64,000 nt of DNA. It comes from a phage. The stretch lies in sequence record PZ445527.1. One strand, given 5' to 3'. Position numbers and translations under genes: made by a program. This document shows, one piece after another, positions 28,940-59,890 of this stretch; positions within the stretch are counted from its first letter, which is position 1; each line of letters begins with the position of its first letter. The notes beneath the pieces were generated by a model that did no database searches, was not told where the DNA came from, and saw nothing but the letters and a program-made list of their open reading frames with translations.

Positions 28940-28964
28940 ATAATCTCCTATTATAAAAATGTAT

Positions 28965-28993
28965 TTGCTTTCATCCCTCTATTTTGCTATAAT
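28965..28993 (+). promoter_or_regulatory. sigma70-like promoter for llp-like gene
   Basis: extended -10 TGcTATAAT (28985-28993), -35-like TTTGCT 17 nt upstream, RBS GGAGAG before ATG 29025. Confidence 0.5.
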
Positions 28994-29024
28994 ATATTCA
29001 TAAATTAGAAATGGAGAGATAAAT

Positions 29025-44241: not shown

Positions 44242-44538
44242 TTATTTCTTACCTTTCAGTTGTTTAACTTCACGCTCAAAGCTAGCTGCACGGCGTTCTG
44301 CCACTGCTTGATGCTCCTTAGCAAAGCGTGCCTCTTGTTTTGCTAAGTTAAAGGCCATAGCGTTCTTGTTAAGAGAATCATACATCTTCTTCATCGCCGG
44401 AATAGACATTTTCATCAGTTGCCCCTCAAATCCTTGCATGTCGAGGAGAATTGCTAATACATTGGCCATTTCAGTCTTGGTAAGGTTAGAGGCGTCGAAG
44501 TCTTTAGTCATGTTTTCCATTAGAATTTCCTCTCTCAT
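44242..44538 (-). CDS. hypothetical protein
   Basis: 98 aa ORF with own promoter-like element upstream. Confidence 0.5.
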   Translation of the reverse strand: MREEILMENMTKDFDASNLTKTEMANVLAILLDMQGFEGQLMKMSIPAMKKMYDSLNKNAMAFNLAKQEARFAKEHQAVAERRAASFEREVKQLKGKK

Positions 44539-44544
44539 TAATTT

Positions 44545-44590
44545 ATGAACTTATTATACAGAATTTTGAGGTTTAAAGCAACTGAATTTT
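44545..44590 (-). promoter_or_regulatory. early sigma70-like promoter
   Basis: on - strand TGTATAAT (reverse complement of 44553-44560), A/T-rich upstream, then AATTAATGAGAGAGG RBS region. Confidence 0.45.
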
Positions 44591-44598
44591 TTAATTAC

Positions 44599-54694: not shown

Positions 54695-54857
54695 GTGCTT
54701 GGCCTAAAAGATCATCAGCTTCCTCAGCAGTAATCTTCAATCCACATACATCTGCCACACGTTCTTTAATTAAGCGACCTGCCTCATGGTAAGACATACA
54801 GGTTCCAACAACACTATGCTCGACAACGTGAATAGCACAGTCTAGACGAGTTTTCAT
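54576..54857 (-). CDS. Cys-rich small protein
   Basis: 93 aa; CDSCSWWC and CRDC motifs; promoter-like TTGTTATAAT upstream on - strand. Confidence 0.45.
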   Translation of the reverse strand: MKTRLDCAIHVVEHSVVGTCMSYHEAGRLIKERVADVCGLKITAEEADDLLGQALEKTEIFLCDSCSWWCEAHEHSFNDYDVCRDCNEEDHDE

Positions 54858-54933
54858 TTCAAACCTCTCTCATCAATTTATAAATATATTATAACAAGAA
54901 AAGAGAGGTTTAGCAAATGAATTATTTCAGAAA

Positions 54934-55402: not shown

Positions 55403-55714
55403 TCACAGATCGGGGCGCTTATCTTCTAAACAGTCCGAGCTAATATCTTCTCCGAATCCTACGAAGCCATCAAATTCATTTGAAATATCCGTAATCATTG
55501 CTTCCATTTTCCTAATCTCCGAGGTTTTCATCCCTGCTTTACTATTCTTAAAGTGTTTGCGAGGATTCCCGCACATCCAACAAGAACAGATACAAGGAGT
55601 AGTAGTGATAATACCTAACCGTTTAGGGCTTTCTTCATGCGGGAAGACTGTCCAATATTTCTTGCGGTTGTTCTTCACACGTTGCCGGTGATGACGTCTT
55701 AATGCTCGATCCAC
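55403..55714 (-). CDS. putative zinc-binding protein
   Basis: CICSCWMCGNPRKH motif. Confidence 0.45.
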   Translation of the reverse strand: MDRALRRHHRQRVKNNRKKYWTVFPHEESPKRLGIITTTPCICSCWMCGNPRKHFKNSKAGMKTSEIRKMEAMITDISNEFDGFVGFGEDISSDCLEDKRPDL

Positions 55715-55795
55715 ACATTTCTCCTAAAACTTGGGAGATAAATGGAGTTTGCTCGACTACCTTACGTAGTTCGTAGAAACCGTATCCAAGCCCCA

Positions 55796-56164
55796 TTACA
55801 TCGCCTGAGTAAATGTACGACTAATAACGTCGTTCTGCTGTTCACGCGTCAGTGCGTTAAAACGCACAGCATAACCAGAAACACGAATGGTTAGCTGAGG
55901 ATATTTTTCAGGATGTTTCTGAGCATCCAAAAGCTGGTCACGACTTAACACATTGACATTTAGGTGTTGACCCCCTTCAATTTGAGGGGCGACTTCCACC
56001 TTGACTTCACGAAAGGATTCGGGGTCAAAGTGAGGTGTGATACCTTCTAGATCCTCAACTAGAACTTTTTGTTTAAGTTCACCATCTTTAGAGTATAATT
56101 GAATAATCTGATTATTATGAACAATATTAATTACGCCAGATTTAAGATTTTGATATGCTTTCAT
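55796..56164 (-). CDS. grcA: autonomous glycyl radical cofactor (GrcA/YfiD-like)
   Basis: 122 aa; C-terminal glycyl-radical motif [13 protein letters not shown] and GGQHLNVNV...[19 protein letters not shown] closely resemble E. coli GrcA and the pyruvate formate-lyase C-terminus. Confidence 0.8.
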
Positions 56165-56529
56165 TAGATCTCCCTGATGTTAGAATTTGGCTCAGCTTTT
56201 TGTTAACCCAGAAGCAAGATAAAAACTGGAAGGCAGGCTTGCTTTTCTCTTAACCACTAGGCTACTTTTGGGTGCTAGCATTCCGGTGAGATTGATGGTC
56301 TCGGTTAAGAAGAAAAACACGGGACTTCTGTTTTAACGTCGTGCTCCCGGATTGATGCGACTACGTGATTGCTCGCGCTAAGACAATGGCTATCTAAAGT
56401 CTTAGCTTCTACATTTATACTCCTGGATAGCATGGAGTTGCAGTCTACTTCCTGCTGTCACGCCCGGTCATTTATAGAATGTGGACTCTCTTCTCAGCAA
56501 GTTCTGGCACTATGGCCTGATCTTCTGTT

Positions 56530-56604
56530 TGGTAGTTAGTAGTGGAATCGAACCAGGTTCCACGGTTTACAAGACCGTTGCATCGCCAGCAATGCTTTAA
56601 GAGC
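56530..56604 (-). tRNA. tRNA-Thr(UGU)-like element with unpaired acceptor stem
   Basis: CCA end, T-loop TTCGATT, perfect anticodon arm ACGGT-CTTGTAA-ACCGT, D-arm GCAT-TGCTGGCG-ATGC; the 5' seven nucleotides do not pair with the 3' acceptor strand; abuts HNH gene stop. Confidence 0.35.
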
Positions 56605-56996
56605 TATCGTTGTCTTGTTGAAACTCTATTTCTGGCCCTATGCGTAGAGGTCATAGAGTGGCAGTTAGGGCAGAGAATCTTTAGATTTTCTGGAGAACAG
56701 TTAGTTGCATCTCCATCTATATGATCTACCTCAGTTAAAACTGCTCCGTCAATTGGATGTTTCCCATCCCAACCACATACTTCACAAGCAGTACCACGAG
56801 TATCCCACAGCCACTTCCTAACAAAAGGTTTTAATTGTGCAGCTTTACCAGTATAACCAGGTTCTTCACCTGCCAGCCACTTTAATACTTTTTGCTTTGT
56901 CTGGTACTCCTGCTGACAAGCAGGACCACAATACTTACCTGCGGAACCTCTACTTTTAGGTTTTGTGATTCCGCAATTTAAACAAGTAAACTCCAT
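56604..56996 (-). CDS. HNH endonuclease with N-terminal zinc finger
   Basis: CLNC...CGPAC zinc finger and HNH motif EVDHIDGDATNCSPENLKILCPNCHS. Confidence 0.75.
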   Translation of the reverse strand: MEFTCLNCGITKPKSRGSAGKYCGPACQQEYQTKQKVLKWLAGEEPGYTGKAAQLKPFVRKWLWDTRGTACEVCGWDGKHPIDGAVLTEVDHIDGDATNCSPENLKILCPNCHSMTSTHRARNRVSTRQR

Positions 56997-57160
56997 GTTG
57001 CTTCCTATTTCAACGGGATTTCTTTTTCAATAACAAGGGCTTATCAGTCATAACTGTCATTGCCATTTGTTGTAGAAATTCAAAGGTGAAGGCTACACGT
57101 TCTTCACCAATCTCTACTTCTACACGTTTCTTTTGTTTGTCAACCTTTAATTTTAGGCTA

Positions 57161-57382
57161 TCAGCCATCTTCGGATTCTCGTTGCTCGGCTACTGCTAGC
57201 CAGTCTGGTAAAAGAAACTTAGTACGAAACTCTTCATACGTTTCTTCTGGATAAAAGCTAAAACCCCCTTTCTCATCATTCAAGATAACAGAGCCGTCAG
57301 TTTGTTCATATGCTCGATATGTTTCTCCAATAATGATAACTCGCTTATCAGTACTTTTATTACGAAACTCAAAAACGTGCAT
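57161..57382 (-). CDS. hypothetical protein
   Basis: 73 aa ORF. Confidence 0.4.
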   Translation of the reverse strand: MHVFEFRNKSTDKRVIIIGETYRAYEQTDGSVILNDEKGGFSFYPEETYEEFRTKFLLPDWLAVAEQRESEDG

Positions 57383-57398
57383 AACGTTTCCTTAAAGT

Positions 57399-57474
57399 TG
57401 GAGCGGCTAGAGGGAATCGAACCCTACTCAGCGAGGCTTGGAAGGCCTGCGACACAACCCGTGTGCTTAACCGC
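57399..57474 (-). tRNA. tRNA, anticodon tentatively UCC (Gly)
   Basis: encoded CCA, T-arm TAGGG-TTCGATT-CCCTC, 7-bp acceptor stem with one G-U; anticodon loop CTTCCAA; atypical short D-loop. Confidence 0.5.
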
Positions 57475-57482
57475 TTATTGTT

Positions 57483-58177: not shown

Positions 58178-58406
58178 AATTGAAAACTCGCAGGGTTAGC
58201 GAAACCATCCTCAATTAGCATGTTCTAGAATACTAATCAAGTTATCTCCTATTGCACGCAGCTCAAGACGAGTACGAATTTTCAATTGTGGCGGCTCTCA
58301 GAAACTCTTCTATTCTAGCCTCAGAAGCTTACCCCCGAACGCATGTCGGGAAAGTCTTTCCAAGCGCATCAAATAGCACCGTTACACTTTGAGCCATTGA
58401 TGTATC

Positions 58407-58476
58407 AAGGAATAGAAGGACTTGAACCTTCATGAGTTAGACCATTTAACTCAACCGCTTTTTAGGGTATATTTCT
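58407..58476 (-). ncRNA. aberrant tRNA-like element
   Basis: canonical T-arm GAAGG-TTCAAGT-CCTTC and acceptor-like ends, but only one internal hairpin (TGAGTTA-AATGGTC-TAACTCA); no separate anticodon arm found. Confidence 0.3.
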
Positions 58477-58543
58477 AGGAGTGGATGTTCCTAGTAAACC
58501 TATTCGGCAGTCCCGTCTACCAATTCCGGCATATTCCAAGATT

Positions 58544-59802: not shown

Positions 59803-59879
59803 TTTGGCGCGACTGATGGGATTTGAACCCACATTCCCTCCCGTGATAGGGGAGTACCATTACCAAGCCAGCCACGGTC
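59803..59879 (-). tRNA. tRNA with atypical anticodon loop CTATCAC (anticodon uncertain)
   Basis: CCA encoded, T-arm GTGGG-TTCAAAT-CCCAT, acceptor 6 of 7 paired, perfect anticodon stem CTCCC/GGGAG. Confidence 0.45.
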
Positions 59880-59890
59880 GCATAATTTAT

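Follow-up and report, generated by a model that had tools for sequence, protein, structure and literature searches.

The tRNA-like element and the origin of its two halves

We analysed a 64,000-nt stretch of phage DNA (sequence record PZ445527.1), referred to here in its full length as the window, with a focus on a locus where a putative HNH endonuclease gene adjoins a tRNA-like element that is itself followed by a stretch free of open reading frames (ORFs). The 22 kb flanking this locus was 92–94% identical to Salmonella and Escherichia T5-like phages (Demerecviridae), and no phage record was identical to it over these 22 kb. Judged by this similarity, the source of the window is a T5-like phage of the Demerecviridae. 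From 55.7 kb to the window's end, all 12 tRNA genes called by ARAGORN lie on the minus strand, as do those ORFs for which relatives have an annotated counterpart. Along this strand the order is a DUF7293 gene, the HNH ORF, the tRNA-like element, the ORF-free stretch and a GrcA-like gene (Table 1).

A first-pass annotation of the sequence had described the HNH ORF as stopping exactly at the 5′ boundary of the tRNA-like element. The two do adjoin, but they overlap by 1 nt, the G of the HNH stop codon TAG (56604) being base 1 of the tRNA. The D arm and the anticodon arm (UGU) are perfect and the T-loop and CCA end are present, as that annotation had stated; it had missed, however, that only three of the five T-stem pairs can form, positions 48-64 (C-U) and 49-63 (C-C) being mismatched. 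Its statement that the acceptor strands GCTCTTA and ACTAACT do not pair was confirmed, with five of the seven positions failing in the cloverleaf and the other two pairable (G1-U and U3-A). The cloverleaf of the element came to +1.1 kcal/mol and that of the intact allele in phage HdH2 to −22.3 kcal/mol; the folding energy of the element was not better than that of shuffled sequences (z = −0.39). ARAGORN called no tRNA or transfer-messenger RNA (tmRNA) at 56165–56604, and the Rfam tRNA model RF00005 gave 24.5 bits, under its gathering score of 29.

The HNH gene is joined to an intact tRNA-Thr, called as normal by ARAGORN, in HdH2, in PMBT27 and in the fragments LM 4-14-1 and ECO111 5-P. In the alignment, the 5′-most ~49 nt of the window element, GCTCTTA included, matched the HdH2 allele exactly, with PMBT27 off at one position; in LM 4-14-1 one acceptor base of the tRNA-Thr differs and the stem still pairs. 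Divergence from the HdH2 allele begins only at the T-loop. Because the ~49-nt 5′ part matches intact tRNA-Thr alleles that are linked to the HNH gene, the 5′ strand is native to the element and it is the 3′ end that is foreign.

The foreign 3′ end of the element, CCACTACTAACTACCA, together with all of the DNA downstream of it, corresponds to the 3′ end of the tRNA-Met(CAU) gene of relatives and its downstream flank. Positions 56530–56543 are identical to the tRNA-Met 3′ end in GSW6, HdH2, PMBT27 and LM 4-14-1, and rokbiter is off only in the CCA end. In the tRNA-Met of relatives this 3′ strand is paired with AGTTAGT, which is deleted in the window. By BLAST, window positions 56544–57406 aligned to HdH2 at 94.8% (tRNA-Thr, HNH gene and beyond) and positions 55700–56555 to rokbiter at 89.6% (from grcA across the ORF-free stretch into the final 24 nt of tRNA-Met). 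The two segments share only 56544–56555, the T-loop (T)GGTTCGATTCC, and a three-way alignment placed the switch from tRNA-Thr to tRNA-Met at the same loop. The T-loop 11-mer GGTTCGATTCC (56544–56554) is common to tRNA-Thr and to tRNA-Met of the GSW6 type; GSW6, the nearest relative for the ORF-free stretch (95%), has a tRNA-Met with exactly TGGTTCGATTCCACTACTAACTACCA. The element joins the front that begins with GCTCTTA to ACTAACTACCA, and the junction reads AACCTGGTTCGATTCCACTAC. Three copies of this 11-mer are present in the window, all of them in tRNA-type T-loops, whereas chance alone predicts 0.03, and the tRNA cluster thus supplies short direct repeats.

The undeleted order is found in LM 4-14-1, where the HNH gene is followed by tRNA-Thr, an ORF, tRNA-Ile, tRNA-Met and the ORF-free stretch; 516 bp of this arrangement is lacking in the window. 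The same interval in rokbiter-type genomes is 812 bp. On either side of the junction the window is colinear with relatives in gene order.

On these sequence comparisons, the tRNA-like element is a tRNA-Thr/tRNA-Met hybrid pseudogene made by deletion. The deletion would have run between the T-loops of tRNA-Thr and tRNA-Met, with the crossover in the common 11-mer, and recombination, single-strand annealing or replication slippage on these short direct repeats is the likely mechanism. The junction and the missing interval are shown by the alignments. The loss of about 0.5 kb took in the tRNA-Thr 3′ end, an ORF of ~97 amino acids (aa), tRNA-Ile(GAU) and three quarters of tRNA-Met from its 5′ side, and left the locus without three tRNA genes (Thr, Ile and Met). 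The acceptor and T stems cannot pair because the halves come from two different tRNAs. Recognition by RNase P, processing and charging of the hybrid have most likely been lost. We assign a probability of about 85% to a three-part explanation of the locus, in which a deletion produced the hybrid tRNA, the HNH gene is independent of it and the ORF-free stretch holds a structured-RNA candidate.

Table 1. Coordinates of the features at the locus and of the corresponding tRNA-Thr genes in relatives.
Feature	Position	Strand	Basis or remark
tRNA-like element, 75 nt	56530–56604	−	directly after HNH ORF
tRNA-Thr(UGU)-derived 5′ part: acceptor 5′ strand, D arm, anticodon arm, variable loop, start of T-stem	56556–56604	−	match to HdH2 and PMBT27 tRNA-Thr
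Crossover zone	56544–56555	−	overlap of two BLAST segments; three-way alignment
tRNA-Met(CAU)-derived 3′ part: T-stem 3′ strand, acceptor 3′ strand ACTAACT, discriminator A, CCA	56530–56543	−	match to tRNA-Met of relatives
HNH endonuclease gene (predicted), 130 aa	56604–56996	−	ORF list, Pfam, PHROG
ORF-free stretch	56165–56529	−	ORF list
Accessory structured-RNA candidate	56240–56529	−	conservation, covariation; begins directly after tRNA-Met CCA in relatives
Helix H1	56495–56527
Helix H5	56440–56455
Module 2	56376–56440		hairpin A 56419–56438, hairpin C 56377–56406, loops complementary
Pseudoknot	hairpin X 56338–56361 with H10 56320–56349
Long hairpin H11	56240–56319
Conserved 75-nt region upstream of grcA-like gene	56165–56239	−	invariant hairpin 56193–56228 and ribosome-binding site GGGAG
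GrcA/YfiD-like autonomous glycyl-radical cofactor gene, 122 aa	55796–56164	−	motif RVSGYAV; Pfam Gly_radical E = 3.6e-18
DUF7293 gene, 52 aa	57010–57168	−	Pfam DUF7293 E = 1e-29
tRNA-Thr loci in relatives	L002 2607–2681; L003 3159–3233; L006 ~585–662

The HNH gene and the cause of the deletion

The HNH ORF reported in the first-pass annotation at 56604–56996 passed both Pfam HNH models, HNH with 24.5 bits (cut-off 21.4) and HNH_3 with 24.9 bits (cut-off 24.8), and 15 HNH families of PHROG were matched (best E = 6e-18). Its predicted protein has an N-terminal CxxC...CxxxC segment and the HNH motif DHIDGD...N...CPNCH. Where measured, the gene was 98–99% identical in relatives, and the HdH2 protein was 99% identical; among several hundred T5-like records, only nine phage records carried the gene at ≥95% identity. 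In the HNH-free relatives rokbiter and phage 2-3, a 10-nt spacer, CGGGTTTATT, extends from the DUF7293 stop codon to tRNA-Thr. In HNH-positive genomes this spacer is replaced by GAAGCAAC and then the 393-nt ORF. The exchange of the spacer and the sporadic presence of the gene are the signature of a free-standing mobile endonuclease gene. We read the HNH gene as a sporadic, free-standing endonuclease ORF, and its arrival as an event independent of the deletion and older than it.

All four HNH-linked tRNA-Thr alleles have the anticodon stem ACGGT/ACCGT, whereas the HNH-free allele has GTTGC/GCATC. In Klebsiella phage vB_Kpn_B01 (L010, 1406–1893) a 73%-identical HNH homologue is located 15 nt downstream of a different tRNA-Thr, and thus adjoins the opposite (3′) side of the tRNA gene compared with the window. 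The allele-specific anticodon stem and the B01 homologue hint that the tRNA-Thr gene may be the target of the HNH enzyme. The tRNA-Thr(UGU) slot was itself found to hold three very different alleles, namely the two just described and an unrelated one in GSW6 with a long variable region. Three such sequences at one slot suggest that the allele may have been replaced repeatedly.

In phage T4, processing of tRNA-Arg cuts the segB message after its final sense codon, ahead of the stop codon (PMC2330249). The coincidence of the HNH ORF end with the tRNA 5′ end in the window resembles this arrangement. By analogy, where relatives have an intact tRNA, RNase P would cleave the HNH message within the stop codon, and this coupling through tRNA processing has probably been lost in the present phage.

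Several points weigh against the deletion as set out above. The T at 56555, immediately 5′ of the 11-mer, agrees with the Met allele, and all four HNH-linked tRNA-Thr alleles have G at this position, so a simple crossover within the 11-mer does not account for every base. This T would need repair of a heteroduplex, a G-to-T change at some later time or a Thr allele that already bore T in the parent. In addition, the exact parent genome was not found among the records searched, and the two flanks are nearest to different relatives (HdH2-like on one side, GSW6-like on the other).

It is also conceivable that the HNH endonuclease itself triggered the deletion, a nick or break in or near tRNA-Thr having been repaired not by homing but by annealing of the tRNA-Met T-loop repeat. 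The deletion begins ~50 nt from the HNH gene, the HNH enzymes of T5-family tRNA clusters are site-specific endonucleases (PMC2330249), and both the distinct anticodon stem of the HNH-linked tRNA-Thr and the position of the B01 homologue beside a tRNA-Thr would fit such a role. The anticodon-stem association could, however, be plain linkage, and cleavage at tRNA-Thr by this putative enzyme is hypothetical. Furthermore, tRNA-Thr is intact in the four other HNH-positive genomes or fragments, and short-repeat deletions of the T5 tRNA region arise in mutants for which no link to an endonuclease is stated (PMC11464382). We therefore regard a nuclease-triggered deletion as unlikely.

Also to be set against a genuine deletion is an assembly artefact, in which two co-occurring T5-like genomes would have been misjoined at the shared T-loop. 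The HNH side is 95–99% identical to HdH2 or LM 4-14-1 and the RNA side 95% identical to GSW6, and the junction in one piece was absent from every other record searched, namely the phage record collection and the IMG/VR contigs scanned. A shared sequence of 11–12 nt is, however, far below the usual assembly k-mers and read lengths, T5-like genomes are mosaic in any case, and both sides are colinear with relatives. An artefact of this kind is very improbable.

The proposal of the first-pass annotation, that the 5′ acceptor strand of tRNA-Thr was displaced or replaced when the HNH gene inserted, took its appeal from the contact between the ORF and the tRNA 5′ end and from the unpaired acceptor stem, and is almost certainly wrong: the same junction and the same GCTCTTA stand beside a fully pairing tRNA-Thr in HdH2 and PMBT27, the LM 4-14-1 allele with its changed acceptor base pairs as well, and the foreign 3′ strand is contiguous with DNA that flanks tRNA-Met. 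An identical arrangement with a normally folding tRNA, which that annotation had itself named as contrary evidence, was thus found in HdH2, PMBT27, LM 4-14-1 and ECO111 5-P, and alignment with HNH-free relatives places the HNH site in the 10-nt spacer, outside the tRNA.

The ORF-free stretch and its candidate RNA structure

The first-pass annotation had noted that 56165–56529 contains no ORF and may encode a structured RNA, and both statements gained support. On the gene strand the longest ORFs are ≤42 aa and no frame is conserved in relatives, most of which have stops in all three frames and indels that are not multiples of three. The stretch was covered to at least 80% in 149 phage records at 82–95% identity, and Yersinia phage phiR2-01 has it at 73%. 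Phages without the element retain the last 75 nt before grcA (query positions 291–365, 97–100% identity). Because these phages keep just this part, the accessory portion is 56240–56529. The hairpin in the retained 75 nt never varies, and covariation is therefore uninformative for or against it. Pattern scans of IMG/VR and metagenomes returned a handful of T5-like or Klebsiella-type contigs and two chance matches (L024 and L026).

An Rfam search, which the first-pass annotation had proposed as a check, matched no family to the stretch. It covered 4227 families at E up to 10, with 8.5 kb, the 471-nt region alone and the Klebsiella-phage version described below as queries, and gave tRNA matches only; the stretch is thus without a known family. 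A group I intron was considered and excluded, as there was no Rfam match and no exons are available for joining between the CCA of tRNA-Met and the complete grcA ORF. Identities of the tmRNA-like, T-box and HEARO type were rejected in the same way, having neither a model match nor the required context. The literature on T5 non-coding RNAs and transcriptomes yielded nothing usable.

For the covariation test, 13–14 copies were aligned, and the RNAalifold consensus structure was compared with 500 shuffles and with controls in which the pairing partners were slid by 1–3 columns. In the consensus structure 98.5% of alignment cells were paired. Two-sided changes were observed at 14 pairs, compared with 7.3 ± 1.6 in the shuffles (0/500 as high) and ≤3 in the slid controls. 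The best-supported helices were the hairpin after the tRNA-Met CCA, the small hairpin H5, the pseudoknot of hairpin X with H10, and the long hairpin. Support was strongest for the long hairpin, which has seven covarying pairs and occurs in three versions that are mutually incompatible and each internally complementary. A long-range helix proposed by RNAalifold (70–74/208–212) was dropped in favour of the local hairpin X, for which a compensatory change and conservation in Klebsiella phages were observed. The single-sequence fold (z = −2.4) was not decisive alone. In phage SP76 (L020) the first hairpin after tRNA-Met has had its inner part (56505–56518), AGGTCATTGTACCA, swapped for the exact reverse complement, TGGTACAATGACCT, and this inversion keeps the hairpin.

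Klebsiella T5-like phages (Sugarlandvirus) have a 640–680-nt ORF-free region at the same place, after tRNA-Ile-Met-Val. This region shares with the window a 65-nt core of two hairpins with complementary loops, GCUAUC and GAUAGC, and in the Klebsiella clade both loops have changed together to GCCGUC and GACGGU, a double compensatory change. The Klebsiella version also has hairpin X, followed by GUUAAA. An optional GAAA-capped hairpin occurs at the same insertion point in two genera, the Klebsiella phages and phiR2-01, with a compensatory change in its stem, which is TGAAG/CTTCA in one case and TGAGA/TCTCA in the other. Downstream of the Klebsiella version lie a T5-type promoter and then an unrelated gene, so the RNA element is not simply a grcA leader. 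Repeats 76–80% identical to this promoter region (AAAAATTCATTTGCTA...TATAAT...) were found in the window at 54855–54926 and 44532–44597 (minus strand) and at 28955–29007 (plus strand), and these are probably early promoters.

The Klebsiella version also embeds a tRNA-like module. A 117-nt tRNA-like module 74% identical to it is present in the window at 58415–58531 on the minus strand, within an ORF-free gap (58178–58543) between tRNA-His and tRNA-Ser, and is kept at that position in several hundred T5-like phage records. It has a D-loop-like AATTGGTAGAC, a T-arm GAAGGTTCAAGTCCTTC and a possible acceptor GGAATA/TATTCC. Rfam gave a weak tRNA match here (22 bits, 58407–58476) and ARAGORN gave none.

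The claim of a structured RNA has its own counter-evidence. Alignment folding energy was alike on both strands (−80.7 and −80.2), the minus strand being favoured only by G-U counts (98.5% paired versus 91.9%) and by context. As the sequences fall into few lineages, the covarying pairs amount to few independent events. The alignment used for the test was also the source of part of the structure, and the loop-loop pairing rests on one lineage split. With these points taken into account, we consider that 56240–56529 is probably a real structured RNA, a prediction from conservation and base changes.

The stretch might instead be what remains of a decayed protein gene, or it might serve the grcA-like gene just as 5′ leader or promoter region and not be a separate RNA. 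Short hypothetical ORFs are annotated in a few relatives, for example one of 96 aa in phage 2-3, and in T5-like phages the stretch is directly upstream of grcA, with two TATAAAT motifs and one weak promoter-like site. Promoter- and terminator-like sites in the stretch were, however, not more common than in shuffled sequences, and an intrinsic terminator was not found. The stops in three frames and the irregular indels argue against a former gene, many T5-like phages have the same grcA gene without the 290-nt element, the Klebsiella element precedes its own promoter and an unrelated gene, and five helices are kept by compensatory changes. Decay or a leader function is accordingly improbable.

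A stable, structured non-coding RNA of a phage tRNA island remains our best guess for the stretch, in a setting comparable to that of the GOLLD and ROOL RNAs. Processing of tRNA 3′ ends would free it from the tRNA transcript.

Elsewhere in the window, a tRNA-Gly(UCC)-like sequence at 57402–57475 (minus strand) has a pairing acceptor, a normal T-arm, an odd D arm and no CCA. It was missed by ARAGORN and was scored by Rfam as tRNA-Sec-like only (30.9 bits); a near-identical PMBT27 sequence is annotated as tRNA-Gly, and HdH2 has a conventional tRNA-Gly there. The expected anticodon of tRNA-Asp is GUC. The tRNA-Asp at 59805–59881 (minus strand) was called with the anticodon AUC (loop CUAUCAC), with A at position 34. 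In relatives, the GrcA-like gene is labelled variously as glycyl radical cofactor, pyruvate formate-lyase, acetyltransferase-related or ribonucleotide reductase subunit.

Comparison with known phage systems

Deletions in the T5 tRNA region are tolerated and the region is dispensable (PMC11464382, where the mutant collection of Glukhov et al. 2018 is cited). The mutants named there (T5Mos, T5-123 and the Glukhov et al. 2018 set) are like the window in having lost tRNA genes and small ORFs from this dispensable region. Their deletions are 3–8 kb, whereas the one in the window is ~0.5 kb. They are characterised laboratory mutants, whereas the window deletion comes from a sequenced T5-like genome for which no database record is a match. 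Moreover, the window deletion ends inside two tRNA genes and leaves a recognisable Thr/Met hybrid, unlike the T5 mutants as described in PMC11464382. We group the hybrid tRNA with the deletions between short repeats in this dispensable tRNA region of T5.

Recombination between tRNA genes gives rise to tRNA pseudogenes and hybrid tRNA genes. The element is like these in its short direct repeats in the conserved T-loop, its mixed origin and its lost stem complementarity.

Free-standing endonuclease genes are found in the tRNA clusters of T5 (F-TflI and F-TflII as well as F-TflIV) and of T4 (SegB) (PMC2330249). The HNH gene resembles these in its setting, being a small endonuclease ORF that intervenes between genes of a tRNA cluster and is sporadic in close relatives. 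It differs from them in that its activity and target are putative, in that it is absent from T5 relatives unlike HdH2, and in that the B01 homologue is located 3′ of a tRNA-Thr. By sequence and setting, the HNH gene belongs with the free-standing homing endonucleases of phage tRNA clusters.

GOLLD and ROOL are large RNAs of phages and prophages that occur near tRNA islands; among the GOLLD RNAs, one that has been studied is located downstream of a Met-tRNA, and in some a linker contains tRNAs (PMC12286853). The element in the window is similar to them in being phage-encoded, non-coding and located at a tRNA-island site, and in its predicted fold of multiple helices with pseudoknot-type contacts. 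Elements of the window type follow tRNA-Met in relatives, and the Klebsiella version embeds a tRNA-like module, both of which recall GOLLD. The sizes are ~290 nt in T5-like phages and 640–680 nt in Klebsiella phages, compared with >500–800 nt for GOLLD and ROOL, and the Enterobacteria as hosts are a further difference. Neither the window element nor the Klebsiella-phage version matched the Rfam models of GOLLD or ROOL at E up to 10, and because it fails these covariance models the element is not a member of either family. We put forward tentatively, at slightly less than even odds, that the element and its Klebsiella counterpart form a new class of large structured RNA in phage tRNA islands, analogous to GOLLD and ROOL yet with no sequence relationship to them.

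The hybrid is a clean natural example of how phage tRNA clusters are remodelled by recombination at conserved T-loops. It also illustrates that an aberrant tRNA beside a homing endonuclease gene need not be the work of that endonuclease. T5 tRNAs counter host defences that cut tRNAs (PMC11464382), and which tRNAs are kept or lost therefore matters for host range. The candidate RNA, for its part, is present in the tRNA cluster of many T5-like phages of Salmonella, Escherichia and Klebsiella and in no RNA family database. As a new RNA class, it could have a part in tRNA biology or in countering host defence in the infected cell. If the RNA is real, E. coli or Salmonella with their T5-like phages would offer a tractable model for the role of large structured RNAs in phage tRNA islands.

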